Shown piece after piece: positions 1 to 52,433 of a stretch of DNA of 52,433 bases. This DNA is from Escherichia virus TH23. A model generated the notes under the pieces. It ran no database searches and was not told where the DNA came from. It saw nothing but the letters and a program-made list of their open reading frames with translations. Positions within the stretch are counted from its first letter, which is position 1. Each line of letters begins with the position of its first letter. The position numbers were made by a program, and so were the translations under genes. The stretch is taken from sequence record MT446397.1; one strand, written 5' to 3'.

Positions 1-433
1 CGTGCTCTGATTGCCTTTGACCTTGACCCACTACCTAACTTGGTGTTGATTGAAAGCCGATAGGCTATAGGAAAAAGTTGGGGTAGGGACCGTATTTAAG
101 TCCGATAGGACGTTGGGCTTCCCCTCCTCGGAGATAAAATTTTAAAAATAATAATGACACAACTTCCCCCCCCCGCCACCTCAAAAATAAAATAATATCG
201 CCACAATTCTAGTCTCATTAATATTGAAACAATTCGAGTCTCATTAATTCCGTAGCAATATTTAAATTAAAAAAAAAATTATATAAAATTTTTATAACAT
301 AGTCGGGCTTCTGTTCGAACAAATTTCGGCTAGATACAGCTGACCGATTGTGAACGAGTCTATGTCCAGATACAGTTGACCGATCATTTACCATTTGGTT
401 TGAACTTTACGCATTCCTAATATTACTTTAAAT
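1..433. repeat. Direct terminal repeat, left copy (equals 52000..52433 except poly-C run of 9 vs 10)
   Basis: Window start cgtgctctgattgcc...tattactttaaat recurs at the window end; AT-rich, contains poly-C, poly-A and short internal direct repeats. True repeat may extend beyond the window edges. Confidence 0.85.
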
Positions 434-565
434 ATTGTAGCAATATTGGGAATAAGTAATATTGAAAACTTACTTATTTTATTCTAGCTCAAAGAGAAAC
501 GACGCTAACGCATCGAATCTCTTCTCACATATTAACTGACAAACGTCAGCCTTCACCATACCCAA

Positions 566-1684
566 TCATAATTCAAATCCACCTAGAGCATCAGTATCAA
601 CTTCGGAGTCAATTTGCCCGACCAGATAGGAACTAATCTCCGTTTCCTGTGGAGCAACCTGTACAGCATCCGAATTCAACCATGCGTTAATCCACGGAAT
701 CGGGTTAGTTGCACCTTTGAATGGAGCATCTAATCCAACTGCTTGCATACGAATATTCGTGATATATTCCACATACCCGCACAGAATTTGCTTGTTTAAG
801 CCAATCATGGAGCCATCTTTGAACAGATAATCGGCCCAATCTTTCTCTTGTTGAGCAGCATCTTCGAACAATTTCTGGCACTCTTCACGGCATTCTTGGG
901 CAATTTCACCCATTTCTGGGTCATCTTTACCACTCGCAAGAATATTCAACATGTGCTGAGTTCCGGTCAAATGGAGTGCTTCATCTCGTGCAATCAGTCG
1001 AATAATCTTGGCATTTCCTTCCATTAACTTGCGTTCAGCGAAGGCAAATGAGCAAGCAAAACTAACATAGAAGCGAATTGCTTCAAGTGCGTTGATAGAC
1101 ATGAGGCATAAATAGAGCTTCCTCTTCAACTCACGAAGACTAATTTCATGACCAGCATGGTTCCCTTCTCCGAACAATTGCCATAATGCAGTGAGTTGTT
1201 GAAGCTCGTCATAATATTGGGAGATGCCAATTGCTCGTGCTTTGATATGCTCGTTAGTTACAATTTCATCAAAGATAATGCTTGGGTCTGTAACGATGTT
1301 TCGAATAATGTGGGTGTAAGAACGTGAATGGATAGTCTCGGAGAAAGACCAAGTTTCAATCCAAGTTTCAAGCTCAGGAATGCTCACGATTGGGAGCAAA
1401 ACTGTGTTAGGTCCACGTCCCTGAATGGAGTCCAGAAGGATTTGATAGCGCAAATTACTGGTGAAAATGTGCTGTTCGTTTGGTGGAAGCTTCTGGTAAT
1501 CAATGCGGTCTTGTGAAACATCTACCTCTTCCGGTCTCCAGAAGAATGACAATTGTTTCTCAATCAACTTCTCGAATATGCCATACTTCTGTTGGTCATA
1601 GCGAGCAACGTTGACGTTCTGACCAAAGAACATTGGTTCTAATAGTTGGTTATTCTTGGTTTGTGAAAAGGTAGTGTAAGACAT
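566..1684 (-). CDS. nrdB: Ribonucleotide reductase class Ia beta subunit (NrdB), very close to E. coli NrdB
   Basis: 372-aa ORF nearly colinear with E. coli NrdB as recalled ([11 protein letters not shown], [18 protein letters not shown], [38 protein letters not shown], C-terminal [15 protein letters not shown]). Two-nt gap to the upstream gene. Confidence 0.93.
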
Positions 1685-1686
1685 TA

Positions 1687-2247
1687 TTATTTATTTCCTA
1701 AATACTTATAAAATTTATGTCCACCATAGGTTCCTCTTCCAACAACTCTTTTGAAATTACATTTCTCTGTAGCTGTGCAGAAGTGGGTGGCATCGGTTAC
1801 ATCTGGGGCATCCAACAATGCGAAGCTAATTGCCACATTCATGGCGTCCCAAACCTGTTTTGATTCGGTCTTCCAATTTGTTTTAACTATGTTCTTCCAC
1901 TGAGCATTCTTCTTCTTTGCTTCTCTTGTCCAAGCAAACTGGTTGCGTTGATATACTACATCGCAAACGGTGTTAGCGAATGGCTTCCCGAATTTGATTC
2001 GATTACGGACGACATTAGCTACCAGAATCTTTCCATGTTTGCTTTCTCCACGAGCTTCAAACCAAATTACTTTGGCATAGCATTCTATATCTTTGCGTTG
2101 AGAAATAGATAGTTTCGGATTTCCATTTAAATAGGATTGACTTGCAAAATCTGTAATAGTGGCGTTCACTGCCCCAGCCGAAGCTGGGACATTTGCGTGA
2201 AACAGACTTACCAACAGAAATGCAAGAACTTGTGCTGAGGGCATCAT
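1687..2247 (-). CDS. SleB/Hydrolase_2-like cell-wall hydrolase with N-terminal signal peptide (endolysin candidate)
   Basis: 186 aa; hydrophobic N-terminus [26 protein letters not shown]; WFEARGES...VANVVRNR...QF.AW...ATHF motifs recalled from SleB-type hydrolases; directly downstream of a holin. Confidence 0.55.
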
Positions 2248-2262
2248 AGTTCCTTGTTTGCA

Positions 2263-2604
2263 TTATTTGGCCTTCTTAAACCAATTGAGTGGGTTGAGTT
2301 GTTTGATTGCAGCAGTGAAGCAATCTCGAATTGTGGTAATGATTAGGTTAGCCCCAATCAAACCAATCACCATTGCAGCGATTGTGGCATAACGTGGTTC
2401 ATCTTTGAATATGTCCACGAAGCCAGGGAGGGAGAAAACAAACGTACCAATAACCACACAAAGCAGAGCATCGAGAATTGCTTTCAGCAAGCCTTCCTTT
2501 TCATATGCCCCACGAATGAGTGCAGTCAATCCAGCCAGGAGTCCATGAAGAACTCCATACTGGTGCATTGCTTCCCAAATCATCTGGAAAGTTTGTCTAT
2601 CCAT
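2263..2604 (-). CDS. Holin, lambda S-like (three predicted transmembrane segments)
   Basis: 113 aa; three hydrophobic helices; ALIRGAYEKEG...ILDALLCVVIG resembles lambda S AYLRGRYNGG...IDATMCAII (from memory); charged C-terminal tail. Confidence 0.6.
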   Translation of the reverse strand: MDRQTFQMIWEAMHQYGVLHGLLAGLTALIRGAYEKEGLLKAILDALLCVVIGTFVFSLPGFVDIFKDEPRYATIAAMVIGLIGANLIITTIRDCFTAAIKQLNPLNWFKKAK

Positions 2605-3134
2605 TAGATTTCATTCCAGTCGATTGTCTTAGTTAAGTCCATTCGAGATACAAGGATTCGCTTCTTCTTCAATTCAAGAAGAGCTTCTTCATCACCTTTC
2701 TCTTGCATCTTGAGTTCAAATACACTATCGAGCAGAGCAATCTGTTCTGACAGGCGTGAGATTGCTTTGCCCTGACGGAACTTGTTGAACAGTATGCGGT
2801 TCTCGGTGTGAGGTACAAACTTCTTACCATCAAACTTCCAGAAGTGCATTTCTTCTGCGACACCTTCTGGCAGGGCATCCAATTCAACTATGTTTCCACC
2901 TAGCGGCGTAGCCACAGTGTCACCAGGTCCAAAGTCGATATGACGAATAGAGCCATCATTCTCATACACAACCTTGGCAGTTCCATCTTTAAGACTCTTT
3001 CGAATCTTATACCAGCACTTACCATTCTCGTCACACCCGAAGATAATTTTGTGCTCGTCCTTGAGCACTTGCTGGTTTTCAGTTAAGTTTGTGTTCTCAA
3101 CAAACCCTTTATAGTTACACAGAATAGCTGTCAT
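2604..3134 (-). CDS. Putative tail fibre assembly / chaperone-like protein
   Basis: 176-aa ORF immediately downstream of three fibre-like genes; position-based call, no diagnostic motif. Confidence 0.3.
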   Translation of the reverse strand: MTAILCNYKGFVENTNLTENQQVLKDEHKIIFGCDENGKCWYKIRKSLKDGTAKVVYENDGSIRHIDFGPGDTVATPLGGNIVELDALPEGVAEEMHFWKFDGKKFVPHTENRILFNKFRQGKAISRLSEQIALLDSVFELKMQEKGDEEALLELKKKRILVSRMDLTKTIDWNEI

Positions 3135-4467
3135 ACCATGTTCCGTTCATATATTTCTGCAATTTACGACGACCAACGTAGTCAATAAATTCATCAGAAG
3201 TTGTGTTATAGCACGATGTAATGACCCAACCAGATTCATCGCGGTAGCCAGGGCCACGCCATGCAGCAGTTTCTTGGTAGGATGCTAAACGAATGTCACT
3301 CATGAAATAGGCATTGACCCAATTCTCTCGTGCAAATCGGAAAGGACCGCCATTACCAGTGTAGTCGATGTTACCATCAAGGCCGAACATCCAGTTATGT
3401 ACTGCTCCGTCATCGCTTCGGCGTGAAATTACAGGACTTGAGAAGTCCGATGTTCTGGTGTATGCACCAAAGGAAATCCAAGAGCCATATCCATAACCAG
3501 TTGTGATTGTGTTCAATGTTGCAAGAGGAACCCAGGAATCTGGGCCAACTTCACAACTGTACACACCATAAGGAACGTTGCCATCTGCCTCTTGTCCCCA
3601 GCCACGACCCCAAGTTATGCCGCGATATTGACCAAGCAAGTGGAGCTTAAAGTCTTGACCAGTGCCAAGTAATTTAAGTTGGTTGTACCCTTCTGCGATA
3701 AGACGTGCAGTGAAGTCTAAACCAGAGTTTGCATAGTGGAAGTCAATAAACGGCGTATTGTTATACAACTCTATTGCAGCAACTTCTGTGGTGCGGTCAC
3801 GCTGCAAGACTCGTGCAAGCTCTCTCCAGTTGGCCCAATTCTGCGAGGCATCTAGTGTACGACTTCGAACCCAGACGTTGCCATAGATTGAAGTATAGCG
3901 TTGCTGAACATTATACGCAGATGGAAGAACTTCCAAAGTACCAGCCATTGCTGCCGGATAGCCGCCAGCAGAGCCAGCAACAGCATCAGACTCTTGATAG
4001 TAGATACCAACATCTGACGCACCTGTAAGCAGGTTAATGTTCATGTTTGAGGCATTCTTACAAGTCATTACAGCATGTGCTGTGTACACCCTGCTACCAG
4101 ATGTGCCTTGCGAGTAGTACATAATCGGAGGCCGTGCTGCGTTACCATGTGTTACCAAGATTGAAGCATTGCTGTTATCAGACACGCCAAGAACAGTAAT
4201 GATTACATACGCACCGCTTACAGAAGATAAGTCCCACTTCTGCAACTCTGGGGGAACGTTGACAGCAGAGTTCATCTCAACGTAGAGAACTTCACCATTT
4301 ACAAAAGTGTATGTATTGAAGTTGAAGTTTCTTACAAATGCCGTGGTTGGAATCTGGGCATTCTTTTGTCCAACAGTGATTACCTCACCACGAGCAGTAC
4401 CTGCATTTAAGAATGCAGCAGACTTTAAGGCGGCAACTAAGCCGCCAAATGACCAACCTTTAGCCAT
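3115..4467 (-). CDS. Tail fibre / receptor-binding protein (distal)
   Basis: 450 aa, G/S/T/N-rich, last of three consecutive fibre-like ORFs. Confidence 0.4.
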   Translation of the reverse strand: MAKGWSFGGLVAALKSAAFLNAGTARGEVITVGQKNAQIPTTAFVRNFNFNTYTFVNGEVLYVEMNSAVNVPPELQKWDLSSVSGAYVIITVLGVSDNSNASILVTHGNAARPPIMYYSQGTSGSRVYTAHAVMTCKNASNMNINLLTGASDVGIYYQESDAVAGSAGGYPAAMAGTLEVLPSAYNVQQRYTSIYGNVWVRSRTLDASQNWANWRELARVLQRDRTTEVAAIELYNNTPFIDFHYANSGLDFTARLIAEGYNQLKLLGTGQDFKLHLLGQYRGITWGRGWGQEADGNVPYGVYSCEVGPDSWVPLATLNTITTGYGYGSWISFGAYTRTSDFSSPVISRRSDDGAVHNWMFGLDGNIDYTGNGGPFRFARENWVNAYFMSDIRLASYQETAAWRGPGYRDESGWVITSCYNTTSDEFIDYVGRRKLQKYMNGTWYDSYSV

Positions 4468-4476
4468 TACATTACC

Positions 4477-5868
4477 TTATAAAGTGGATATTTGGTTTGG
4501 TGTCATCTTGAAATCCCAAACTCGGAAGTTACGAACCGCATAGTTTCTTGATGTTGGGCGATAGTGAATCTGTGGGTATCTTCCGACACATGCAGCAGCA
4601 GCATTCTGAGAAGTATCAGAAGCTACACGAACACCATCAACATAAATCTCAAGGCCAGTGGTTGTGCTAAGGGTTGCAACAATACGATACCAACGATTCA
4701 CCTGGGCAGGAAGATTATAGTAAATCCAATCACTAGCTCCAGAGGCATTTCGGTTAATATTAAGCTGACCTTTGTTCTGCAAATAGAAATCTATGTTCTC
4801 GTTATTCAACCCATTTAAGGAAAAGAATACGCCAACAGAATCATCACTACTCGGTGCACGAGGTGTATTAGATAGGATGTCTACACAGATTGTGCAGTCC
4901 ATAAAACCATATCCAACACCTTCATACATCACATCCAGATTATCTTGTCCAGCAGGTCGATACAAAGCACCACCGTAAGCATTGTTGAAGTACAAGCTAT
5001 CGGGGGCGTTAATTGCACCCTTTCCATAATAGATGTTGAAATCACCAATCAAATGCTGGCAGAAGTTTGGTTCTGGTACAGCATACTTTGGTTCTTCACG
5101 AGCCTTAACTTCTGCAAATGTTGCATCAGTAATGATTCGAGAGTTGGTGTTTGTTGAAGCCTTTCCAACAACTGGAACACCACTGGCATCCAGACCAATA
5201 CGTGTATCACCAGACTGCATGTAGAAGCCAGCAGGACCGAATGACAACTTTGTGGTTCCACTTGCATCAAACAACATACCTTGCTGGAACGTAACAGGTC
5301 CGGTATAAGTGCCGCCAATGATAGGTACAGCACCTGCCTGAGCAGCAGTTACTTGATGGGGATTGTTTCGGTCGTTGGCGTGACTTGCAACAAGGGCATT
5401 ATATTGAGCAATCAACGAATCGATTTGTGCTTTGTTGTATGCACCAATCATGTTGGCTGTTAGTCTGTGTGGGTTAGAAGTAACATCTGCAATGTGTGCA
5501 GAAATCTTACTAACAATATCGTCGTAGTCATAACGAGATACTTGAATCGCACTTGCAGCCCACTGCCCTAAGTTCTGGCTAGGGCGCAGAGTACGACTAG
5601 GAGAACCAACAGTTGCAACATAAACAGTTCGAGTTGCATCATCCCACACAAGGGAACCAAGTCCGTACTGAACATCGGTTCCCCATTCGAAGACACCACG
5701 TTCAGCTAATGCCAGAAGAGTAGTGTCAACCTTATACTGCAAATAGTTAAGAACCTGGAAGGTTGGGATTTCTGCAATCCACCCTTGAAGATATTTAGCA
5801 TCTCCTGGGTCACGCCGTAAGTTGGCGTTGTTCGAAGTCCAGACTCTATTAAGTTTTGGTCTTAACAT
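4477..5868 (-). CDS. Tail fibre protein
   Basis: 463 aa; NPHQVTAAQAGAVP motif typical of phage tail fibres; repetitive beta-rich composition. Confidence 0.55.
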   Translation of the reverse strand: MLRPKLNRVWTSNNANLRRDPGDAKYLQGWIAEIPTFQVLNYLQYKVDTTLLALAERGVFEWGTDVQYGLGSLVWDDATRTVYVATVGSPSRTLRPSQNLGQWAASAIQVSRYDYDDIVSKISAHIADVTSNPHRLTANMIGAYNKAQIDSLIAQYNALVASHANDRNNPHQVTAAQAGAVPIIGGTYTGPVTFQQGMLFDASGTTKLSFGPAGFYMQSGDTRIGLDASGVPVVGKASTNTNSRIITDATFAEVKAREEPKYAVPEPNFCQHLIGDFNIYYGKGAINAPDSLYFNNAYGGALYRPAGQDNLDVMYEGVGYGFMDCTICVDILSNTPRAPSSDDSVGVFFSLNGLNNENIDFYLQNKGQLNINRNASGASDWIYYNLPAQVNRWYRIVATLSTTTGLEIYVDGVRVASDTSQNAAAACVGRYPQIHYRPTSRNYAVRNFRVWDFKMTPNQISTL

Positions 5869-7067
5869 TATCGTCTCGCAAGCATAGAGATTTGGTTGGC
5901 AGAAAGTCTTGGATATACGGCAAAGAATCTTAGAGCCATAACAGTCTTATCTGCAAATAAGTTATTATCAATGTAGTCCTTCAAATCAAGTCCGTCAGGG
6001 AAGTTGAAGGAATCACCATCAGCAGTTCGCATGACCACATCGACTTCATCGGTAGTAACCACAACAACCACAGTGGTCGGTATATCCAGAATAGGACCAA
6101 AGAATTTCAACCCATTGTCAGAGATTTTAAATCCACCATACCAAAACTCTGGGTCAATGGTTGTCTCGACAGTCCACAAACCAACAGACTCTGCGTCATT
6201 AATATCTTCATGGAAGTTGGCACGGAGCATTGGCACAGGAAGTGCAAACTGATTACCATACTTAATGTTGAAGCTGTTGTAGTTTGCTTCTGTGATGATT
6301 TCAAAAGCACCCGCAGAGTTGATGAACCACGCGTGTCCACCACTGTCCACACCGATTGCAGTAGTTCCGTTGACCAATTCAAATACGCCGGTAGAATCAT
6401 TTCGATGTGCATATTGTGAAACACCGCTACCAGCATATGCTTCTTCAGTGAAGACTATCGGACCTGTGAAGGTTCCACCAGATGTTGGAAGTGTTCCAAG
6501 TTGTTCTGGAGTTACCCTGTGAACAGATGCACCAGTTCTGGAGATGTGATACGGGATTGTTGTAACTCGTTCGTCACTGGCAAACCTGTCATACACATAA
6601 TCTTGAAGGTAGGTTCCATCAACAATTGTGTCTACAGTATCCTTGTGCGGGTTCTGTTCTGCCATGTGGGCATTGAACGTGTTCTTGAGATATTGGACCT
6701 TTTCACTATACTGAACGAGGTTAGTCTCAAGAACTTCCTGCCACCCACTTCCAGAGGTTGAAGGATTTATATTCCCAGGAATCTCTTCCCGCTTCTGATA
6801 AATCTTACCATCAACTAATGCAAAAGCACCGAGTGAGTATGTTACAGTGTCGCACCATTGAAGTATGCCACCAAGCAACATCTCTCGAATCTTGACGTCA
6901 GTGATTTGAGTTAAGAAGTTCTGCCATTGTTCAGGAGGCTTTTCAGCTTCCCAACCAACAGTGGCATATCGGTCTGGAATATAGGATGGTGCAGTTGTAT
7001 CCAAGTCGGGGTCAAGTGCTTCGCCATCCTGCGCCCAATATTCTGGGTAATTCAAACGATTTGTCAT
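5868..7067 (-). CDS. Tail fibre protein (proximal, gpH-position)
   Basis: 399 aa; follows gpI-like baseplate gene in P2-like order; NPHKDTVDT segment similar to fibre motif. Confidence 0.45.
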   Translation of the reverse strand: MTNRLNYPEYWAQDGEALDPDLDTTAPSYIPDRYATVGWEAEKPPEQWQNFLTQITDVKIREMLLGGILQWCDTVTYSLGAFALVDGKIYQKREEIPGNINPSTSGSGWQEVLETNLVQYSEKVQYLKNTFNAHMAEQNPHKDTVDTIVDGTYLQDYVYDRFASDERVTTIPYHISRTGASVHRVTPEQLGTLPTSGGTFTGPIVFTEEAYAGSGVSQYAHRNDSTGVFELVNGTTAIGVDSGGHAWFINSAGAFEIITEANYNSFNIKYGNQFALPVPMLRANFHEDINDAESVGLWTVETTIDPEFWYGGFKISDNGLKFFGPILDIPTTVVVVVTTDEVDVVMRTADGDSFNFPDGLDLKDYIDNNLFADKTVMALRFFAVYPRLSANQISMLARR

Positions 7068-12414: not shown

Positions 12415-15400
12415 TTATCTACGTTCCATTGCACCATTACCCATGTTGATTGTTTGGGTAACAGTTTGACCGTTCGGAGTTGACACGGTTGCAGACGCTT
12501 GCTTGTTGTTCACAGTAGCTTTGACTTCAACGTTAACTACAGTGGCCTGTGTCTGACCATAAGACAGTCCGTTTCTGGTGAAGCCAGTTGCACCTTCTGC
12601 GATAGAATCACCCTGAGAAGCCCATTCACGGTACTTCTTGACGCGGTTCTGTGCCTGTAGAGGAACAGCATTGAGCCAGTCGGTTCCGTGTTTGTTGATA
12701 GCATCATCAACAGTTCCAGCACCATCCGTATACGCCGCCATAGCCTTCTCAGCGTCACCATTATAACGCTTGAGCATTGCATCATAGTAGTCACGACCAA
12801 CGCGAGCACGTTCTTCCAGTGAGTTATCACGGGCAGGTTTAACGCCAAATCCTGGGTCACGGGAAGTTGAATCAAGAACCTGCATACGACCTTTGGCACC
12901 AGTCGGAGATGTAACCACCGAACCATCTGCGTTCAAATCGCGGTTCCCTGACTCTTCTCCTGCGATAAAGTCATATACCGTTCTGGTAGTATCAGCTAAA
13001 CCATTTGACGCTGTACGCGCTACTCTGGCCGCATCTCCACCTGCTTCGATAAATGAACTCCCGTATGATATTGCAGCTTGCGGGACTGCGTATCCTGGCA
13101 GCACCCCAGCACGCTCCGTCTGCGCTATTCCTAGCTGTGCAATACCATCGGCATACTGTGAGTTGGCACCACGGCTTACGTTCTCCTGAGCCTCGTTCAC
13201 GCTGTAATCTGTACGGTCATAGGCGCGAGCCATGCCATCCAGACCTGCCATCTCCATAGCGCCAGCGATACGAGCCTGACTCCAGCCCCGCTCCTGACCA
13301 CGTTCACGCATTACCCGCGCTAAGGCCACAGGGTCGCCCTGTGCCGCACGAATGTCGCCAATAGTGATAAGACCACGGGTTCCCTGAACGATGTTGACAG
13401 CGCCGCTAGGGTCGCCATTCAGGAGGGTGTTATAGGCACTATGTGTGGTTCGATTGAGTCGGCCAGCTTGTTGCTGATTAAGCCCCAACATCTCCAAGCC
13501 CTGTGACATGGAAGAATATTCATTAGGGTTATTGACACCAGCGTCTAAAGAGTTTCCGTAGAAATCGTTCAGACCTTCGAGCGCCTCGTTACCAATCTGG
13601 GTAGCACCGATAGCCATACCCGCCACACGTCCCCACGGGGTCATCATGAGGGCATTCATTGCACCATTGGATAGTGAGCCTATGCTACCGCCAGCTACGC
13701 CAGCAGCCAATGCGCCACCAGCACGACCGAAGTCATCTGAGAAGCTGCCACCAGTATTCCAACCACGACCGCCACCGCCACCGGAACCACCCCCACCAAT
13801 GCCATAACTACTAGCATCGAAGGTGTCCCAGAAGCCGCCACCACCGCCACGACCACCATTGTCCCCGAAGTCGGCATCTTGTCCACGCAGCTTATTTTCT
13901 TCCTGAGCAGCGAGGATACCTTTCTTGACAGATACTGCCATCAAGTCATTGCCAGTTGTGCTGTCAGAGCCTACGGCAGAGGCTGTGGCTTCCCCAACTC
14001 CAGCACTGGTACGGTTGCCTATGAATGGGTCATCGGCTGTACCAGCAGCGGCAGAGTAGCCACGCGTTGACTTCTGCTTAACATCCTTCCAGATACCATC
14101 GCCAGTCATTGCAGCACGAGCACCTTTGATTAAATCATCATTGGACAAGTCTGAATTAGCTTCAACAAACTCTCGACCAGCATTAAGACGACCAATAGTA
14201 GAATCAATCTTATCTTTGTTGCGTTCGTACCATCCCTCGTCCTTCTCAATCCATTCCGATACCGTCTTGTCTCCGATTGTCTGAGAGAACAATGCACGAC
14301 TACGGCCAGATACAAGCATGCCAAATTGAAGTTGGTCGAGATAGTCCTTATGCTCACCAGCAGACAGGTTAGAAAACTTCTTAGCCCTTTCAGGGTTCTT
14401 GTGTTCCCAAATCGCGTCATCACCGATAAGACCATCTGGGGAATACATGAACGACGGATAATTGTCATTTGTTATTGCGCCAGCTTGCTCAATGTCGAAT
14501 CCAAATTCTTTGGCGACACGGTTACGAGCAACTTCTTCCGTCCGATGACCTGCTTCGAACATTCGTTGAGTAAATTCACTTGGCCCCTTTCCGCGTTGTA
14601 GGCCAATCTTATCAACCATTGCAGCCCAGGGTCGGTTGTATTCATTGTTACCAAGAAACGAGCCAACAGTGGAACCAGTAATGTCATATTGCTTGCGGAA
14701 GTCTAACCATTCCTGAGTGCCCTGTTCCATGTTGTGATAACGGATTGGGCCTTCTTGCGGAGCTGGCTGTGGAGCAGAGTCCAAATTAGATATAGCAATG
14801 CTCTCACGACGAGAGCGAGCAGAGTTCCAACTTGTTGGAGAATCAAGTTGTGCAATAAACTCTGTTGAAGGACTTAATTCAGTAGGTCCAGTATTTCTTA
14901 AACGTTCAGCAGGGTCAAATGTTCGAGAAACTTCTGCCTCATTATATTGGTGAGCATTCTCAAGAACACCACGAATTGATGTACCAGAGTAACGAGGGTC
15001 GTCACCAATATCTTTCTTAAGGTTATCGTAACCGGAACGAACATCTGCAATGTCTGCATAACGAGAAGCAGAGTCCAGGATTAAATCTCTGTCAGAAGAT
15101 TGAGTGCGATATGCATTCATTCCTCTTTCAGCACCACCAGAATAAACCTTTGCCGCAGATTTAACTACGCCAGAAACATCTTGGTAGAGTGTCTTGCTTG
15201 CATCAGACCAACCTGGAGAACCAGACAAGGATGCAGATAGGGAATATTCAGACTTGATACCTCCACCAAATGAACCTATCGGAAGACCAGATGCGTTAAG
15301 AGGCTGTCGAGGATGCAGAATATCTCCAACAACAGATTCAGAACCAAGTTGAGGTAATGAATCCATGTATGAAAGTTTTGGCCCCGACTTATTTCCTACA

Positions 15401-16092
15401 TTCATTGCAGATACGGCAGCAACTTCTCGGAAGTTTTGCGGCAATTCTGATTCTAAACGTTTGGCTACACGATAAACATCTCGTGCATAGCGGTCTGGGT
15501 TGTCGTATTGTTCACGGTCAACATACATGTGAGCAAGATAGCCAAATGACTTGGCAATATCTCCACGGTTTGTGGAATATTCATCCATAATATTACCGGT
15601 ATAGTGTCCGGCAAGTTCAGGCATTATATCTTGATGACCTGCAAGAGTATCTCGCATGTACGAGTTAAGCATTCCCCAATGACCTTCCGGCTTGTTGGGG
15701 TTGGCTTTAGGCATGTGCATCCAAACATCATCAGCGGATACACCAAGTTGTTCCATGTATGCGTGAACTGCTTCTACATGGTGTCCTGGTCCGTTCATTG
15801 CAGCATGGAATGTTTCAGTCAGCCCAGCGCCAGAAATCATCTGTGCTATATGTGCTGCATCTGAAATCATATCAGAAGTCCCGTATGAAGTTTCATCCTC
15901 ATACATCTGGGAATCTGGTTCGCCCAAAAGCTGTGAATTTGTTTCCATCCAACCTGACGCAGCACTTGATTCAAGTTGCTGGGCCATATCTCGTTTGCGC
16001 ATACCAGGATTGAAGGACAGACCGTACTGAGCACCCATGCCGATTAGTTCGGCCTCGGATAGCTTCATTAAATCTTTTAAGTTCTTAGCCAT
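12415..16092 (-). CDS. Tape-measure-like large tail protein with an internal YqaJ-type nuclease-like segment, a glycine-rich tract and a C-terminal lytic transglycosylase (SLT) domain
   Basis: 1225 aa between chaperone and baseplate genes; QGTQEWLDFR...YSPDGLIGDDAIWEHKNP resembles the YqaJ/lambda-exonuclease motif; GGRGGGGGF...GGGGSGGGGGRG tract; ESGNRDLNADGSVVTSPTGAKGRMQV resembles the SLT catalytic region. Confidence 0.55.
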   Translation of the reverse strand: MAKNLKDLMKLSEAELIGMGAQYGLSFNPGMRKRDMAQQLESSAASGWMETNSQLLGEPDSQMYEDETSYGTSDMISDAAHIAQMISGAGLTETFHAAMNGPGHHVEAVHAYMEQLGVSADDVWMHMPKANPNKPEGHWGMLNSYMRDTLAGHQDIMPELAGHYTGNIMDEYSTNRGDIAKSFGYLAHMYVDREQYDNPDRYARDVYRVAKRLESELPQNFREVAAVSAMNVGNKSGPKLSYMDSLPQLGSESVVGDILHPRQPLNASGLPIGSFGGGIKSEYSLSASLSGSPGWSDASKTLYQDVSGVVKSAAKVYSGGAERGMNAYRTQSSDRDLILDSASRYADIADVRSGYDNLKKDIGDDPRYSGTSIRGVLENAHQYNEAEVSRTFDPAERLRNTGPTELSPSTEFIAQLDSPTSWNSARSRRESIAISNLDSAPQPAPQEGPIRYHNMEQGTQEWLDFRKQYDITGSTVGSFLGNNEYNRPWAAMVDKIGLQRGKGPSEFTQRMFEAGHRTEEVARNRVAKEFGFDIEQAGAITNDNYPSFMYSPDGLIGDDAIWEHKNPERAKKFSNLSAGEHKDYLDQLQFGMLVSGRSRALFSQTIGDKTVSEWIEKDEGWYERNKDKIDSTIGRLNAGREFVEANSDLSNDDLIKGARAAMTGDGIWKDVKQKSTRGYSAAAGTADDPFIGNRTSAGVGEATASAVGSDSTTGNDLMAVSVKKGILAAQEENKLRGQDADFGDNGGRGGGGGFWDTFDASSYGIGGGGSGGGGGRGWNTGGSFSDDFGRAGGALAAGVAGGSIGSLSNGAMNALMMTPWGRVAGMAIGATQIGNEALEGLNDFYGNSLDAGVNNPNEYSSMSQGLEMLGLNQQQAGRLNRTTHSAYNTLLNGDPSGAVNIVQGTRGLITIGDIRAAQGDPVALARVMRERGQERGWSQARIAGAMEMAGLDGMARAYDRTDYSVNEAQENVSRGANSQYADGIAQLGIAQTERAGVLPGYAVPQAAISYGSSFIEAGGDAARVARTASNGLADTTRTVYDFIAGEESGNRDLNADGSVVTSPTGAKGRMQVLDSTSRDPGFGVKPARDNSLEERARVGRDYYDAMLKRYNGDAEKAMAAYTDGAGTVDDAINKHGTDWLNAVPLQAQNRVKKYREWASQGDSIAEGATGFTRNGLSYGQTQATVVNVEVKATVNNKQASATVSTPNGQTVTQTINMGNGAMERR

Positions 16093-41493: not shown

Positions 41494-41510
41494 TTCAATT
41501 CCAACTAATG
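41494..41510 (-). promoter_or_regulatory. Conserved intergenic motif copy (candidate phage promoter)
   Basis: Minus strand CATTAGTTGGAATTGAA, at the upstream edge of the 40.9-41.7 kb island. Confidence 0.3.
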
Positions 41511-41540
41511 TTTCAGAATTATTCCAATATTCCAAACAAA

Positions 41541-41634: not shown

Positions 41635-41650
41635 TCAAATCCCACTAATG
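41635..41650 (-). promoter_or_regulatory. Conserved intergenic motif copy (candidate phage promoter)
   Basis: Minus strand CATTAGTGGGATTTGA; shares a 14-nt identity (actaatgtttcaga) with the 41494 copy. Confidence 0.3.
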
Positions 41651-41720
41651 TTTCAGACTAAAGCCGAAGGCCAATGCGAGTACAAAACCCGCTTGGCACT
41701 TCGAAGAAACCCGCCTGGAA

Positions 41721-41937: not shown

Positions 41938-42558
41938 TCAGATGTTTTCAAGCTGCGCACGAAACAATACCCCATTTGAGAAGATGAAGTCTGAACCATA
42001 ATCGTGAACAAACTTCTCCCAATCAATGTAGTTCAGTAAATTATCAGGAATGCCATACGAATCGCTTTCCTGTCGGAAATACTGCTCCATAGAGTCAAAT
42101 TCTCCGATATACGCATCAAGCAAATTAACTTCTTGATAGAAGATATCAATTTCATCACTGTCGTATGCAGCCATGATAATTTCTTCACTAACTTCTGTCA
42201 GCAAATTGTTATAATGGTCGTAGCGAGTGCGACTAAAGACACCTTTAATAAAGCAGAGCTTGGTTACGCTGTCATCATCTGATTCGATAATGTCATACGT
42301 GCCGGTTTCAGGGAATTCGATTCCGTATTCTTCATGCAGATACTCCTGCATATTGAAGTCATAGAGCCGCCATGCCAGACCATCAATCCAAACATCTTCA
42401 AATTCAGAGTTGTTTTCGCCTGTGTAGAAACGAACCAATAAGGTTTCATCTCTACGCCAGGACTTAAGTTGTTCCACTGCTTTAGTAATGTTATCGTTTT
42501 GCATTAAGTTTCTCCCACATACCTTGAAGTTCCATGTTAAGGATTTTGAGCTGTTCAA
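41938..42558 (-). CDS. Acidic protein, ArdA-like antirestriction candidate
   Basis: 206 aa, strongly acidic; C-terminal NYIDWEKFVHDYGSDFIFSNGVLF resembles the ArdA region as recalled; true start may be the internal MQNDNITK. Confidence 0.35.
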   Translation of the reverse strand: MNSSKSLTWNFKVCGRNLMQNDNITKAVEQLKSWRRDETLLVRFYTGENNSEFEDVWIDGLAWRLYDFNMQEYLHEEYGIEFPETGTYDIIESDDDSVTKLCFIKGVFSRTRYDHYNNLLTEVSEEIIMAAYDSDEIDIFYQEVNLLDAYIGEFDSMEQYFRQESDSYGIPDNLLNYIDWEKFVHDYGSDFIFSNGVLFRAQLENI

Positions 42559-45554: not shown

Positions 45555-45572
45555 TCTCACATCCAACTAATG
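45555..45572 (-). promoter_or_regulatory. Conserved intergenic motif copy (candidate phage promoter)
   Basis: Minus strand CATTAGTTGGATGTGAGA, about 80 nt upstream of the SSB-tail gene start. Confidence 0.35.
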
Positions 45573-45731
45573 TTGAATTAATCAGGAACACTCAATGAAT
45601 GCTCCTTGTTAATTTAACGCGCCAGTTTATATTCCTGCTTGTAATAGCAGCAGGTTGGCAAAGCCTATAACAATCGTAATTATAACAACGCTAATAGTAA
45701 GTGTCAGTATTAGGTATTTAATATTCAATCC

Positions 45732-48797: not shown

Positions 48798-48814
48798 TTC
48801 ACATACAACTAATG
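48798..48814 (-). promoter_or_regulatory. Conserved intergenic motif copy (candidate phage promoter)
   Basis: Minus strand CATTAGTTGTATGTGAA. Confidence 0.3.
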
Positions 48815-48859
48815 ATAAATGAACATGCTTAATTGCAACTAACTCATCTGCCAAATAGA

Positions 48860-49715
48860 CGAATTTTGTCACAATTAAACATGCGTCATTAATTACAGGT
48901 TTACTCCCACCTTGAATGTATTTGGCACATTAAGATTGGAGCAAGCAGGTACGGAAAACCGACCATGTACAGCATAATAAAACTAATTAAATAAAGGGTT
49001 TTATCCCAATATTGTCACAATATTTACATGCGATGATAAAGCCTTCGCTTGGCTGGAAGCCAGTATTCATGCGGGTTGCAAGAATATTGGGTCAATACTG
49101 ATACAGCTATTACATGTGAAATTGGCACAAATACTGTTACAAAATTAACATGCCGGATTGGTAGACAATTGTATCTTCGAGGTGATTAGTCCTCTAACAA
49201 TTCTGCCACATTCTAACATGCCAATTTGTAGCAATATTTACATGCCATACTGTGACGCAATTGTCACAATATTTGTTGCTCAAAATCGGGGCGGGCTACG
49301 GGATTAGTTTCGCGGCTTTGCTCCGACTCTTCTCTTCTTTCGAATTAAGATAGAAAGAAAGAAGCATGTCCAAAAGTTCCAGTCTTGCCAAAGTTATCTC
49401 CCGGCTTGTGGGTGGGCCTTTATAATAGGAGATGGAGCAATATTGTCGCAATTGAACATGCTTTAGTTGAAGAACAGTTTCGAATGATAATCCTACTTCA
49501 CACATGGTTGCTGGAACTTTGTCTGGCCAAAGACAGGGAGTTCAATGATTGCCACATCATTACAACGCTGTGTGTTTAGTTGACATGCTGAAATGTTTCT
49601 AGAATGATTTCAACATGACATGCGGAATACTTCTCCGTATTCTGTTACTTCACATCCAACTAATGTCGAATATTGAAACAATATTACATGCAGCAATATT
49701 GCTTGAATATTGGGA
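48860..49715. repeat. Cluster of at least nine degenerate copies of an AT-rich 20-mer (consensus TTGTCACAATATTTACATGC), mostly one orientation, one palindromic unit TGTGACgcaattGTCACA
   Basis: Copies near 48866, 49011, 49122, 49201, 49225, 49249-49280, 49441, 49550 and 49676; related copies near 199-270 and 435-470. Confidence 0.6.
49649..49665 (-). promoter_or_regulatory. Conserved intergenic motif copy (candidate phage promoter)
   Basis: Minus strand CATTAGTTGGATGTGAA, about 75 nt downstream of the RNA polymerase terminator. Confidence 0.35.
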
Positions 49716-49737
49716 ATTAAAGGATTTAATTAATAAA

Positions 49738-49774
49738 GAATAAAGAAAGGGCCATCACCTTTCGATGACAGCCC
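49738..49774 (-). terminator. Intrinsic terminator immediately downstream of the RNA polymerase gene
   Basis: Minus strand: stop codon, gaaaca, GGGCUGUCAUC-GAAA-GGUGAUGGCCC (about 11-bp stem, GNRA loop), then UUUCUUUAUUC. Confidence 0.55.
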
Positions 49775-49782
49775 TGTTTCTC

Positions 49783-51897
49783 TTATTGACAGAAGTAGTA
49801 AGCGTGTTCGCTCATCAGAAGCTCTTCGGTTACGATGTTCTCATGATACATCTGAATGCCACCAAGTTGCTTAGACAGATTCTCGAATTGATTGTTGGTT
49901 ACGAAGATTTCAACATATGCTGCACGAATAACTTCCATCATTTTAGGAGCATCAGCTAAGCAGCAACGGAAACAATCATGGATTGAAGTAAAGCCACGAA
50001 GACCAGCTTCTTTAGCTTTGACTGCAACAGTACGAGCAACCAATGCGTCAATACCTTGAATGTAGTTAACAACGAAGGTACGTTTGAATTCCTCTTTAGT
50101 TGGATTGGACTCACGAATGGTCCAAGGCTTATTCTCCTGAATCTGACCAAAGATGACACGAGTTTGAGAGTCAACACGAATGCTGAATGCATCACAAACA
50201 TCACGAGATGGGAAGCAAGGTTTCATTACAACTTGACCATCAGTGTGCTTATATGTGATGTACTCTTTGTTGAGTTCAACACAACGAGCAAATGCAGCAT
50301 CAGCAGCTTTCTCGATGAACATGTTAATCTTAGCACCCAATGCGTTATGGATTGCTTCAACACAAAGTTCAGCAAATGCTTCGGCTTTCTCCATAGGAAT
50401 CTGGAGAGCTTCTGTCATGTATGCGGTGAAATCAGAAGAACCAGTCAATGCAGCTTTACCACCACCATATTGGATAGCCATGTATGGAGTTTTGATAAAC
50501 TTACGACCAGCTTTCGGATTCAAGAATTCATCCATAATTTCAGCGGATGGTTTCATTGAAGAACGGTCAAGCAACTTCAACAGTTCACGAAGAGATAACT
50601 GGTATGGGTCAGATGCTTTAGTCTCAGAATCAACCAGACCTGTAGCACGAGCCATTTCCATGTTACCAGCAATGAATGCCAAGTATTGGGTACCAGAACA
50701 TTTAGCATCTAAGCCAAAGCCTACACGAGAATCACACTCACCTGTAGTCTCAAACTTGAACCAATCCAGAGCCAGACGAACATAAGTGAATGGCTTAGAA
50801 GGACGCTCACCTTTAGGCATGTTCAGCATACGAGCCAAAGAACCAGCAGGATTCTGTGCAACATAAGTTAAACGTTTTGCAGAAGTCCAGTCTCCACCAG
50901 CAATATCTTCCAGCTCAAGCATGAACATGTTGTATGCCAGAGTTGTTGAGCCATCATCATTAAACTTGCTCACAGTGTTCTCAACATTGTGGGAATACAG
51001 GCAACGAGCAAAGTCGGATGATTGTGGGTTAGGACCAGCACATGCTACATGATACAAACGACCACGGTTATCAGCAAAGTAGTCAGAGAACAGAGTGTCC
51101 TGCCCAACCATTGCTACAGCATTGTTCCAAACATGGAGTTCAGTCTGGATTGCTTCTGGCATCTGTAAGCCACCAAAGGTACGTTGTTCTAACATGGAAG
51201 AGATAACCTTAACCATTGTTGCATCAACGTGATATTCAGTATCTTGCAGGAATTCGATTGCAGCTTTCAGAGTCTTGGATGGCTTAACTTTGCCACCTTT
51301 AACGAAAGGCTTGCGACGAGATTCAGTTGTTACACGCTCAGTGAATGGAACTGAGGTATCTTTGGTTGTAACCAGCTCAACCCATGCATCAGTCATCTGG
51401 AACGATTTGTCCTCGTTCATGGTGATGAAACCGAAGTGCTTAGCTAAACCAATGAGGTTGATAGCTGGGTCAACATAGTGCATTGCTTTCAGGTCGTTGT
51501 TATAACGGTTGGCATCAGCAATAGAAGCAGAAGCCAGCTCGACCATTGCAATGGCTGGGACAACATCATCACGAGTGAATGACGTCATCATCTTGAAGAT
51601 TGCAAGAGCAGCAATAGCACAGGTCTGAGGCTGCATGTAATTCTGTTTCTCTTTGGCACGGTATACCAGAGCCGTGATAGCAGGGACAACGGATTTGATA
51701 GTTTGAGTTGAGATAGTTGTCATTTTGCGAGTCTCCAAGTTAGTTTCGGTTTTAGTTTCGGATTGTGTAGCAGCAGTGATTTCGTCAACCATTTGGTTGC
51801 AACGGTCCATCGTATCAAGCACGTCTTTCCAACCGTGGCCTTCTTCTTTTAAGCGAGCGCCATCAGCAGCCAGTGCGCGATATTCTTCGTTAGTCAT
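49783..51897 (-). CDS. Single-subunit T7-like DNA-dependent RNA polymerase (small, 704 aa)
   Basis: Motif A FGLDAKCSGTQYLAF (T7 FDGSCSGIQHF), motif B RKFIKTPYMAIQYGGG (T7 RSVTKRSVMTLAYGS), motif C FTSIHDCF...ADAPKM (T7 ALIHDSF...ADAANL); GGAG Shine-Dalgarno. Confidence 0.85.
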   Translation of the reverse strand: MTNEEYRALAADGARLKEEGHGWKDVLDTMDRCNQMVDEITAATQSETKTETNLETRKMTTISTQTIKSVVPAITALVYRAKEKQNYMQPQTCAIAALAIFKMMTSFTRDDVVPAIAMVELASASIADANRYNNDLKAMHYVDPAINLIGLAKHFGFITMNEDKSFQMTDAWVELVTTKDTSVPFTERVTTESRRKPFVKGGKVKPSKTLKAAIEFLQDTEYHVDATMVKVISSMLEQRTFGGLQMPEAIQTELHVWNNAVAMVGQDTLFSDYFADNRGRLYHVACAGPNPQSSDFARCLYSHNVENTVSKFNDDGSTTLAYNMFMLELEDIAGGDWTSAKRLTYVAQNPAGSLARMLNMPKGERPSKPFTYVRLALDWFKFETTGECDSRVGFGLDAKCSGTQYLAFIAGNMEMARATGLVDSETKASDPYQLSLRELLKLLDRSSMKPSAEIMDEFLNPKAGRKFIKTPYMAIQYGGGKAALTGSSDFTAYMTEALQIPMEKAEAFAELCVEAIHNALGAKINMFIEKAADAAFARCVELNKEYITYKHTDGQVVMKPCFPSRDVCDAFSIRVDSQTRVIFGQIQENKPWTIRESNPTKEEFKRTFVVNYIQGIDALVARTVAVKAKEAGLRGFTSIHDCFRCCLADAPKMMEVIRAAYVEIFVTNNQFENLSKQLGGIQMYHENIVTEELLMSEHAYYFCQ

Positions 51898-51959
51898 GAT
51901 AAGTCTCCAATTGATTATGATTTAACTGAAACGGATTAGACTTGCGTAGCCTATTCATA

Positions 51960-51977
51960 ATCACAACCAACTAATGG
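51960..51977 (-). promoter_or_regulatory. Conserved intergenic motif copy (candidate promoter), upstream of the RNA polymerase gene
   Basis: Minus strand CCATTAGTTGGTTGTGAT, about 70 nt upstream of the polymerase ATG. Confidence 0.3.
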
Positions 51978-51999
51978 TAAGGCTAGCTCGTTACAACAG

Positions 52000-52433
52000 C
52001 GTGCTCTGATTGCCTTTGACCTTGACCCACTACCTAACTTGGTGTTGATTGAAAGCCGATAGGCTATAGGAAAAAGTTGGGGTAGGGACCGTATTTAAGT
52101 CCGATAGGACGTTGGGCTTCCCCTCCTCGGAGATAAAATTTTAAAAATAATAATGACACAACTTCCCCCCCCCCGCCACCTCAAAAATAAAATAATATCG
52201 CCACAATTCTAGTCTCATTAATATTGAAACAATTCGAGTCTCATTAATTCCGTAGCAATATTTAAATTAAAAAAAAAATTATATAAAATTTTTATAACAT
52301 AGTCGGGCTTCTGTTCGAACAAATTTCGGCTAGATACAGCTGACCGATTGTGAACGAGTCTATGTCCAGATACAGTTGACCGATCATTTACCATTTGGTT
52401 TGAACTTTACGCATTCCTAATATTACTTTAAAT
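52000..52433. repeat. Direct terminal repeat, right copy
   Basis: Matches 1..433 with one extra C in the poly-C run. Confidence 0.85.

Follow-up and report, generated by a model that had tools for sequence, protein, structure and literature searches.

Locus organization

The window analyzed here is the whole 52,433-nucleotide stretch of Escherichia virus TH23 (MT446397.1), a member of Carltongylesvirus, the phiEcoM-GJ1 group of the Chaseviridae. Positions 1-433 of the window repeat 52000-52433, and the window therefore contains a closed genome of about 52.0 kb. Near its first positions, on the minus strand, a gene encoding the ribonucleotide reductase (RNR) beta subunit follows a holin gene and an endolysin gene. 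The features of the region are listed below.

2263..2604, minus strand: holin (class I), gene 1 of the lysis cassette (PF05106, 3.6e-09; annotation in relatives)
1687..2247, minus strand: endolysin, a Hydrolase_2 / SleB-like cell-wall hydrolase (PF07486, 8.8e-16; its Mangalitsa counterpart carries a SAR endolysin annotation)
1694..1699, minus strand: Shine-Dalgarno-like AGGAAA for nrdB (read from the sequence)
566..1684, minus strand: nrdB, class Ia ribonucleotide reductase beta (R2) (open reading frame, PF00268, NF006576, E. coli R2 structures)
around 537-552, minus strand: second small hairpin, CTGAC-GTTT-GTCAG (read from the sequence)
500..515, minus strand: terminator-like hairpin, CGATGCGTTAGCGTCG then TTTCTCTTTG (consensus scan and sequence)
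100..565, minus strand: non-coding tail from nrdB to the right end of the unique genome (alignment to Mangalitsa)

The original prediction, made from the sequence of the window, described nrdB as the last gene after the lysis cassette, two nucleotides past a hydrolase gene. This arrangement was confirmed: exactly 2 nt lie between the endolysin stop codon TAA (1689-1687) and the nrdB ATG (1684-1682), the holin-endolysin pair precedes them, and nrdB is the final gene ahead of the terminal repeat. The AGGAAA motif lies 9 nt ahead of the ATG, within the final codons of the endolysin gene. AGGAAAT is also found in Mangalitsa and phiEcoM-GJ1, in both of which the nrdB start codon overlaps the stop codon of the endolysin gene (TAATG), and AGGAAA(T) is given as the Shine-Dalgarno sequence of nrdB in the description of phage ST32 (PMC6266442). 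By alignment to Mangalitsa, whose ends are a PhageTerm prediction with a 3,234-bp direct terminal repeat, the terminal repeat of TH23 begins at about window position 99 and carries the RNA polymerase gene.

Scanning upstream of nrdB revealed no sigma70-like site at a usable position. A 17-nt motif that is repeated 8 times in the genome falls entirely within 31.8-52 kb, with no copy near nrdB. Because nrdB lies 2 nt from the endolysin gene here and overlaps it in relatives, has its ribosome binding site inside that gene, and has neither a usable sigma70-like promoter nor any of the repeated early-region motifs nearby, it is probably transcribed together with the holin and endolysin genes at the end of the late block and coupled to them in translation. 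The hairpin at 500..515 is about 50 nt downstream of the nrdB stop codon, and the transcript would probably stop there. Such sites are not found in this region above the level of shuffled controls, and the hairpin is only suggestive as the nrdB terminator.

Identity of the nrdB product

The nrdB reading frame is intact, starts with ATG, and encodes 372 amino acids. The product matches Pfam family PF00268 (7e-50; 170.3 bits against a cut-off of 33.6) and, end to end, the NCBIfam equivalog NF006576 'class Ia RNR subunit beta' (protein 1-372, model 1-376; 717.7 bits against a cut-off of 346), while the NrdF model TIGR04171 gives only 100 bits against a cut-off of 355. A search of the PDB aligned residues 1-372 with residues 1-376 of E. 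coli R2 (E=6.5e-205), a match far beyond chance. The protein had been described as almost colinear with E. coli NrdB, and the alignment bears this out, with 79.5-80.4% amino-acid identity and a single 4-residue gap.

All six diiron ligands (D84, E115, H118, E204, E238 and H241 in E. coli numbering) are identical in phage NrdB, as they are in two other members of the genus. The radical-bearing Y122 and the radical-transfer residues W48, E52, D237, E350 and Y356 are kept, and the hydrophobic radical pocket (F208, F212, I234) is invariant. Each of the 17 residues examined for a part in catalysis or radical transfer is retained. A surface loop at about E. coli residues 175-184 is 4 amino acids shorter in TH23 NrdB and 10 amino acids shorter in the Mangalitsa/ST32 type. 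When 27 cellular sequences were compared, the phage clade differed at 12 of the 245 sites that are invariant in cells, including N131T, Q306G and, in the tail, N343A and D369A. An excess of lineage-specific change in the phage protein was considered and rejected, as phage betas that have their own alpha carry 13-14 such changes. The conserved residues are consistent with a catalytically competent class Ia beta2 that would generate a diiron-tyrosyl radical, and this prediction is one part of the overall explanation favored below.

Absence of an alpha subunit

The TH23 genome encodes a lone beta subunit and has neither nrdA nor yfaE, and the original prediction was correct in naming no nrdA partner. 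Searching the whole closed genome by tblastn with E. coli NrdA and YfaE gave best E-values of about 0.5 (0.54 for NrdA), with no gene and no remnant found, flanks of nrdB included, and no large ORF matched the Pfam RNR large chain. The ORFs longer than 500 amino acids are all otherwise assigned: Pfam identifies RNA polymerase, terminase, DNA polymerase and primase-helicase, and the annotation of 4HA13, a colinear relative, identifies the tape measure protein. Among the 3681 phage records that match NrdA, the best 60 listed likewise include none from Carltongylesvirus. Bacterial nrdB loci, for comparison, have nrdA directly upstream in 77 of 80 cases.

Roughly half of the ORFs in the phage lack a functional assignment, and NrdB might in principle partner an alpha that is not recognized among them, or the host class Ib NrdE. 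The unassigned ORFs are, however, 300 amino acids or shorter, too small for an alpha, and the NrdA search that came up empty here does pick up the T4-like alpha, whose identity to the E. coli protein is 54%. The contact residues and tail described below, together with the low score against the NrdF model, fit a class Ia beta, and a partner of either kind is highly improbable. As there is no alpha in the genome, a role in ribonucleotide reduction is therefore possible only together with host NrdA.

Distribution among phages

Window positions 1-6000 are 100% identical to Escherichia virus TH33 and 99.9% identical to Escherichia virus TH28, and NrdB is 100% identical in both. The TH33 and TH28 records are unannotated. 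Within the phage collection, NrdB at 89.8% identity or higher is found in 45 records and the RNA polymerase at 90% or higher in 45 records, and nrdB is present and intact in every one of the 45 Carltongylesvirus-group records. The same gene occupies the same position in phiEcoM-GJ1, ST32, Mangalitsa and the PYps phages, with 90-100% amino-acid identity and no material difference, and phages isolated on Yersinia carry NrdB at 99% identity. Both the gene and its status as an nrdB without nrdA are already known in this genus: GenBank annotates it as RNR beta, nrdB was noted as the last ORF of ST32 (PMC6266442), and Dwivedi et al. 2013 tabulated phiEcoM-GJ1 as an nrdB-only phage (PMC3653736).

In five sister genera (Sabourvirus, Faunusvirus, Suwonvirus, Loessnervirus and Myducvirus) nrdB is absent at this locus. 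Their genomes end with the holin and endolysin genes followed by a conserved terminal non-coding region, and part of the TH23 tail at 100..565 is conserved there, 3' of the endolysin gene. NrdB was undetectable across the whole genome of 4HA13, the closest outgroup tested. Because nrdB occurs in all 45 records of the group and is missing from five sister genera, the gene entered this lineage at the base of the genus.

Age, origin and selection

The original prediction went further and proposed that nrdB was captured recently from an Escherichia host, in which case it would be unadapted to the phage and act as a moron. The colinearity with E. coli NrdB at 80% identity, the addition of the gene relative to the sister genera, and the slightly higher identities to Escherichia and Klebsiella (80-80.6%) are in keeping with such a capture. 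Comparison at the nucleotide level revealed instead an ancient divergence, the very outcome that the original prediction had named as speaking against it. Phage nrdB is only 70-72% identical to nrdB of E. coli in all 5426 genomes, third-position identity is 0.41, dS by the NG86 method is undefined through saturation, and dN (0.157) is above that between E. coli and Pasteurella (0.125). The GC content of phage nrdB is 0.424, and its GC3 of 0.418 ranks 31st of 53 phage ORFs, close to the phage mean (0.404 +/- 0.042) and far from E. coli nrdB (0.629). Codon usage agrees: RSCU values correlate at 0.69 with those of the phage and at 0.19 with those of E. coli nrdB, and neither measure marks the gene as foreign.

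The best cellular match among 185,579 species genomes is 80% identical by tblastn and 80.6% in our own alignment, and the GTDB species genomes, IMG/VR and a set of 5.8 billion proteins contain no closer donor, with nothing between 81% and 90% identity. In neighbor-joining trees, which are distance trees only and are rooted on the long T4 branch, Enterobacterales without the phage clade were monophyletic in 97% of bootstrap replicates, while the phage grouped with Enterobacteriaceae in 0% and with Enterobacterales in 1% of them, placing phage nrdB outside Enterobacterales. The gene has also diverged to a dS of about 0.7 inside the genus. It is old and phage-adapted and was not taken recently from E. 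coli; the chance that a recent capture is the right explanation is minimal.

Phage NrdB is about equally distant (76-81%) from its counterparts in Enterobacterales, Pasteurellaceae and Vibrio. A protein identity of 80% seemed to indicate a recent event, yet it equals the depth of the split between Escherichia and Vibrio, whose NrdBs are 79.5-79.8% identical, and this calls for caution in annotation. The gene had also been read as a sign of an Escherichia-like host. The host is indeed E. coli, but with NrdB this evenly distant from several families and 99% the same in Yersinia phages, its sequence is a weakly supported indicator.

Within the genus, dN/dS of nrdB is 0.033-0.076 at dS values of 0.44-0.72, and the gene is under strong purifying selection. 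This bears on whether nrdB might serve no purpose today, as a neutral passenger or as the decaying leftover of an nrdAB operon that was formerly complete. Its obligate partner is missing, it sits at the extreme genome end in a region that varies between genera, and the 175-184 loop is progressively shorter from TH23 to the Mangalitsa/ST32 type, all of which might be expected of a remnant. Such low dN/dS over this range of dS, an intact gene with all catalytic residues throughout the group, and the lack of any trace of nrdA or yfaE in the flanks or the rest of the genome make a functionless gene very unlikely.

Compatibility with host NrdA

SI Tables S9/S10 for the 2.6-A E. coli alpha2beta2 structure (PMC11551348) list 32 beta residues in direct contact with alpha. 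Of these, 30 are identical in phage NrdB, compared with 78% identity elsewhere in the protein (Fisher p=0.023). The two that differ, N131T and N343A, are changed across the whole phage clade, and N343 is invariant in 27 of the 27 cellular sequences compared. The C-terminal 20 residues of phage NrdB are identical to those of E. coli at 16 positions, while the T4 tail is unrelated. Conservation of the alpha contacts does not discriminate between a lone beta and one with its own partner, because Privateervirus NrdBs, which have their own NrdA, keep 31 of 32. The original prediction held that the beta subunit would have to pair with host NrdA; the missing alpha and the retained contacts agree with this, and the pairing itself we infer from sequence.

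Two further possibilities were considered. Escape from dATP inhibition found no support, since I297, documented as the key beta residue of the alpha4beta4 ring (PMC11447812), is kept along with its neighbors S295, M296 and N300. The idea that the beta tail tracks the host was rejected, as NrdBs that are 99% identical occur in E. coli and Yersinia phages whose host NrdAs are 91% identical.

Phage NrdB could also have a non-catalytic or regulatory role, in which it would bind host NrdA, or form a heterodimer with host NrdB, and sequester or re-tune the host enzyme; it could act as a dominant-negative subunit, for instance, or as an anti-defence decoy. The conserved alpha-binding tail and contacts would serve a binder equally well, expression appears to come late in infection along with the lysis cassette, and in vaccinia a catalytically dead R2 that can still bind R1 has a dominant-negative effect (PMC2900304), so such an activity is physically possible. 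A mere binder, however, needs no iron ligands, Y122, W48, D237 or radical pocket, all of which are invariant under purifying selection, and a block of dNTP synthesis would hurt a lytic phage that replicates 52-kb genomes. We therefore consider a regulatory role distinctly unlikely.

Proposed role of phage NrdB

The explanation that we favor, and that we hold to be reasonably likely as a whole, is that NrdB is a competent beta2, acquired long ago and co-transcribed with the late block, that pairs with host NrdA as a hybrid reductase. The Carltongylesvirus ancestor would have taken up nrdB as a single gene, with neither nrdA nor yfaE, at the junction of the endolysin gene with the terminal non-coding region, where purifying selection would have retained it since. 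The conserved C-terminal tail of phage NrdB is predicted to insert into host NrdA, and the product would be a phage-beta2/host-alpha2 enzyme; with no alpha in the genome, the borrowing of host NrdA is most likely. The hybrid may keep up or increase the de novo synthesis of dNDPs in infected cells under aerobic conditions, acting alongside ThyX, the thymidylate synthase of the phage, and a dUTPase and a dNMP kinase that are annotated in its close relatives. Class Ia RNR requires O2, and any benefit would therefore be limited to aerobic growth. A late, lysis-linked site is unusual for a gene of nucleotide metabolism, and NrdB could arrive too late to matter. The sister genera manage without nrdB, which is a point against a hybrid reductase. 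Our literature search found no biochemical, genetic or expression data for NrdB of the Chaseviridae.

It is also conceivable, though unlikely, that the chimeric enzyme behaves unlike the host reductase and serves as a deregulated dNTP pump late in infection. Its possible traits would be a lesser dATP-induced alpha4beta4 off-state, YfaE-independent maintenance of the radical, or promiscuity across Enterobacterales alphas, with N131T, N343A, Q306G, D369A and the shortened 175-184 loop as candidate adaptations.

Comparison with known systems

Phage NrdB belongs to the same family as E. coli NrdB (e.g. PDB 1RIB, 6W4X) and has the same length; all metal, radical and PCET residues are common to both, as are most of the alpha contacts and I297 of the dATP-inhibited ring interface. 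In contrast to the E. coli gene, phage nrdB stands alone, with no nrdA upstream and no yfaE downstream, and has phage composition, and its product has the shortened loop and the changes at cell-invariant sites.

Among viruses, most chordopoxviruses encode R2 only, and the R2 C-terminus binds host R1 to form functional hybrids that support viral DNA synthesis (PMC2900304). TH23 likewise encodes a host-like small subunit alone, as in vaccinia F4, although F4 belongs to a eukaryotic virus and host and its hybrid was demonstrated by experiment, whereas the phage hybrid is proposed from sequence compatibility. If it is shown, a hybrid phage/host RNR would be, to our knowledge and by the papers searched, the first virus-host hybrid RNR in bacteria. 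The 'small subunit only' strategy of poxviruses would then extend to bacteria, the radical-bearing beta rather than alpha would limit RNR activity in infected E. coli, and phage NrdB would provide a natural beta variant for studies of alpha-beta recognition across Enterobacterales. The gene bears more generally on the way in which a virulent phage of medium size, with T7-like transcription, boosts its DNA precursors through one borrowed subunit.

T4 and Privateervirus NrdAB also provide a class Ia beta for dNTP supply in virulent phages, and the Privateervirus beta is host-like as well (75% identity). In these phages nrdA lies directly upstream of nrdB, whereas TH23 has no alpha, and the tail of the T4 beta is unrelated to that of E. 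coli.

Phage morons are extra genes inserted between conserved genes. The description of nrdB as a moron stands insofar as it is a single added gene that closes an operon, is missing from this site in the five sister genera and is followed by a terminator-like hairpin. It differs from morons in that no usable sigma70-like promoter of its own was detected and its composition is typical of the phage. TH23 is moreover virulent, and nrdB encodes a subunit of a metabolic enzyme with no function in lysogenic conversion.

Genome and classification

The sequence is a closed phage genome with about 52.0 kb of unique sequence, in which bases 1-433 recur at 52000-52433. Since the two end copies are identical except for one homopolymer (C9 versus C10 near 166-174), the window represents a ~52.0-kb genome assembled as a circle. 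The direct terminal repeat, 2.3-3.2 kb in the virion DNA of relatives, is collapsed in this assembly. Window 1-6000 shares 100% identity with Escherichia virus TH33 and 99.9% with TH28, and the window is 80-95% identical to MLP1, the PYps Yersinia phages, ST32, Mangalitsa and others. The phage belongs to the genus Carltongylesvirus in the family Chaseviridae (phiEcoM-GJ1 group). All likely genes are found on the minus strand, in the order RNA polymerase, early genes, replication module (primase-helicase, DNA polymerase, ThyX and exonuclease), structural genes, holin, endolysin and nrdB.

Several minor features were also recorded. A GC spike at 13001-14000 (0.561, compared with a genome value of ~0.44), where GC skew is strongly negative, lies within a 1225-aa ORF (12415-16092), presumably the tape measure. 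ARAGORN made one tRNA-like call at 38081-38150 (-), with the anticodon read as 'ac'; one tRNA-Arg is reported in the related phage Tiny. A 206-aa early ORF at 41938-42558 (-) has an ArdA antirestriction match below threshold (21.1 bits, cut-off 27), and its homologues in Mangalitsa and in 4HA13, a Sabourvirus, are annotated as antirestriction proteins.

Identity of the nrdB product

The product of 566-1684 is beyond doubt a class Ia RNR beta subunit. It matches Pfam PF00268 (7e-50), scores 717.7 bits end to end against the NCBIfam equivalog NF006576 (cut-off 346), and aligns with E. coli R2 crystal and cryo-EM chains at E=6.5e-205 with a single 4-residue gap. In E. coli numbering, all iron ligands (D84, E115, H118, E204, E238 and H241), the radical Y122 with its hydrophobic pocket (F208, F212 and I234), and the radical-transfer residues W48, D237, E350 and Y356 are kept. 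The sole length difference from E. coli NrdB is a surface loop at ~175-184, 4 residues shorter in this protein and 10 shorter in the Mangalitsa/ST32 type, and no alpha-contact residue is located there.

GenBank records of many Carltongylesvirus members annotate the gene as RNR beta, which is also the product of the last ORF in ST32 and phiEcoM-GJ1 (PMC6266442). Dwivedi et al. 2013 counted two phages with nrdB only, and their Table S1 gives nrdB as the sole RNR gene of phiEcoM-GJ1 (PMC3653736); the nrdB-only feature is therefore already known. Added here are the genus-specificity of the gain, the ancient, fully ameliorated character of a gene that did not come recently from E. coli, the strong purifying selection on it, and an alpha-contact surface predicted to suit the host enzyme.

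Locus and expression context

The relevant features are as follows.

566-1684 (-), nrdB, ORF of 372 aa with an ATG start
1687-2247 (-), Hydrolase_2 endolysin, TAA stop 2 nt before the nrdB ATG
49783-51897 (-), single-subunit RNA polymerase (ORF and Pfam)
31847-31863, 39538-39554, 41495-41511 and 41635-41651, repeated-motif copies 1-4
45557-45573, 48799-48815, 49650-49666 and 51961-51977, repeated-motif copies 5-8

ORF and sequence reading showed that the original prediction had the coordinates of nrdB and its 2-nt spacing from the hydrolase gene exactly right. The nrdB Shine-Dalgarno sequence, AGGAAA, falls inside the final endolysin codons, and a consensus scan upstream of nrdB found no usable sigma70-like promoter. 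The simplest reading is that nrdB would be co-transcribed and translationally coupled with the lysis genes. A hairpin with a T-rich tract after it (515-500, -) lies approximately 50 nt past the nrdB stop; matches of this type are no commoner here than in shuffled sequence.

A 17-nt motif (17-22 nt) occurs in 8 copies versus 0.3 expected, all in the same orientation, reading TCACATCCAACTAATGT on the plus strand and ACATTAGTTGGATGTGA on the coding strand. It is confined to 31.8-52 kb, the early/middle region, with one copy just upstream of the RNA polymerase gene and none near nrdB or in the late region, and is a candidate early/middle promoter or regulatory site.

The direct terminal repeats of relatives are long and contain the RNA polymerase gene: PhageTerm predicts 3,234 bp for Mangalitsa and 3,120 bp for 4HA13, and a repeat of ~2.3 kb was shown experimentally for PYps23T. 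Mapping the Mangalitsa ends onto the window places the repeat boundary at ~99-100, which makes nrdB the last gene of unique sequence, ~466 bp from the right repeat. By the same alignment the repeat spans window ~48900-52099 (also 1-99) and includes the entire RNA polymerase gene, so virion DNA would hold two copies of that gene, one per end.

Absence of an alpha subunit

The lack of an nrdA partner was borne out across the closed genome. A tblastn search of the whole window with E. coli NrdA and YfaE returned nothing better than E=0.5, while the same search regained NrdB at 79.5% identity. All ORFs above 500 aa are accounted for, the RNA polymerase, terminase, DNA polymerase and primase-helicase by Pfam and the 1225-aa ORF through its counterpart in 4HA13, a colinear relative, where it is annotated as tape measure; ORFs without an assignment are at most 300 aa. 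No alpha, thioredoxin, glutaredoxin or ferredoxin is annotated in the well-curated relatives Mangalitsa and 4HA13. When 50,697 phage records were searched with E. coli NrdA (tblastn), no Carltongylesvirus was among the best 60 of 3681 matching records. Because nrdA lies directly upstream of nrdB in 77 of 80 bacterial loci sampled, the phage holds just the distal gene of the operon.

Host-like NrdB proteins (73-76% identity to the window protein) are also found in several jumbo phages, including Erwinia phage AH04, Pantoea phage Survivor, Kosakonia Kc263, Shewanella SXP01 and Aeromonas LAh10. The AH04 gene (MZ501267.1, 187409-188539) has no adjacent nrdA, and none of these phages is among the 60 best NrdA matches (at least 56.6% identity) in the phage collection. 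These phages could constitute a second, independent set in which the beta subunit is orphaned or mismatched.

Distribution and origin of nrdB

In the phage collection, NrdB of at least 89.8% identity occurs in 45 records and RNA polymerase of at least 90% in 45 records; both counts fit one set of Escherichia, Shigella and Yersinia phages plus one labelled Staphylococcus. The latter, 'Staphylococcus phage Pel53' (PP952070.1, stated host Staphylococcus hyicus), is a Carltongylesvirus with 85.7% nucleotide identity over window 15-2377 and a 98.7% identical NrdB, and its host label looks doubtful.

Five sister genera within this subfamily (Sabourvirus 4HA13, Faunusvirus, Suwonvirus PM1, Loessnervirus Y2 and Myducvirus) carry no nrdB at the locus; their genomes finish with holin-endolysin and then a terminal non-coding region. 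In local alignment, the holin-endolysin block is conserved together with some of the non-coding sequence downstream of it, and the 1.1-kb nrdB is without counterpart. NrdA, NrdB and YfaE are not detectable in the whole 4HA13 genome. The survey of related phages that the original prediction proposed thus found the gene genus-wide and missing from the sister genera, and nrdB was gained once, at the base of Carltongylesvirus. The genome end beside the terminal repeat may, we conjecture, be merely a permissive insertion site, as the region after the endolysin gene varies between genera.

The proposal that nrdB is a recently captured host gene fails on nucleotide identity, synonymous divergence, codon usage and phylogeny. 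Across all 5426 complete E. coli genomes, nrdB matches the phage gene at 70-72% nucleotide identity, third positions in the codon alignment are 41% identical, and Nei-Gojobori dS is saturated and undefined. The dN between the phage and E. coli genes (0.157) exceeds that between E. coli and Pasteurella (0.125), and at 80.4% protein identity the phage NrdB is as distant from E. coli as is Vibrio NrdB (79.5-79.8%). Outside the genus, no cellular or viral sequence exceeded ~80-81% among 5.8 billion proteins, species genomes (185,579 species, one genome each) and IMG/VR. One public bacterial NrdB of 494 aa (58,868-bp NCBI contig) is broken up by repeated VSYTHLDVYKRQ segments, the peptide obtained when the Nextera transposase adapter (CTGTCTCTTATACACATCT / AGATGTGTATAAGAGACAG) is translated, and is therefore an assembly artefact. 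GC and codon usage, suggested as a check on capture, are phage-like and not donor-like: GC3 is 0.418, mid-distribution for the phage (0.404 +/- 0.042), versus 0.629 in E. coli nrdB, and codon usage correlates more closely with the remainder of the phage (0.69) than with E. coli nrdB (0.19).

In neighbor-joining trees (300 bootstraps) the phage clade was monophyletic in 100% of replicates, Enterobacterales were monophyletic without it in 97%, and it grouped with Enterobacteriaceae or Enterobacterales in 0-1%, so nesting inside Escherichia's family is excluded. A position outside Enterobacterales, Pasteurellales and Vibrio had 61% support; the exact position is uncertain, since the trees are distance-based and their root lies on a long T4-like branch. 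Within the genus, nrdB has dS of 0.44-0.72 and dN/dS of 0.033-0.076, indicating long residence under strong purifying selection and contradicting a reading of the gene as a neutral remnant.

Probable pairing with host NrdA

A beta2 subunit alone cannot reduce nucleotides. The conservation of the radical machinery under purifying selection argues that phage NrdB is used catalytically, and with no phage alpha, host NrdA is the only one available. An alternative role purely as a binder or decoy fits poorly with the protein's invariant iron and radical sites.

Contacts were defined from the 2.6-A alpha2beta2 structure (SI Tables S9/S10, PMC11551348) as those E. coli beta residues that lie within 3.5 A of alpha. 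Of these 32, 30 are unchanged in the phage protein, compared with 78% of other positions (Fisher one-sided p=0.023), as are 12 of 13 water-bridged residues; a true Yersinia orthologue also scores 30/32. Both differing contacts, N131T and N343A, are common to the whole phage clade, and all 27 cellular sequences in the comparison keep N343. Of the final 20 residues, 16 match E. coli; the T4-type beta tail is unrelated, and T4 and E. coli RNR subunits are not known to cross-react. E. coli and Yersinia pseudotuberculosis have both served as isolation hosts for phages with ~99% identical NrdB, and the NrdAs of Escherichia and Yersinia are 91% identical, so the phage beta would tolerate that much alpha variation. 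The alpha-contact surface thus appears host-compatible, and we consider it fairly probable that phage NrdB forms a hybrid phage-beta2/host-alpha2 reductase.

Such an enzyme would sustain aerobic de novo dNTP synthesis and would complement the phage ThyX as well as two enzymes for which close relatives have annotated genes, a dUTPase and a dNMP kinase. Conjecturally, the phage carries beta because this radical-bearing subunit would become limiting for activity after host gene expression has stopped. Evasion of the dATP-induced alpha4beta4 off-state by the phage beta finds no positive support: I297, the only beta residue for which a key role at that interface is documented (PMC11447812), and its neighbours are conserved, and clade-specific changes at otherwise invariant sites number 12/245, versus 13-14 in phage betas with their own alpha. 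The closest experimentally established parallel to the proposed phage hybrid is found in chordopoxviruses, most of which encode R2 alone; this R2 uses its C-terminus to bind host R1, and efficient replication depends on it (PMC2900304).
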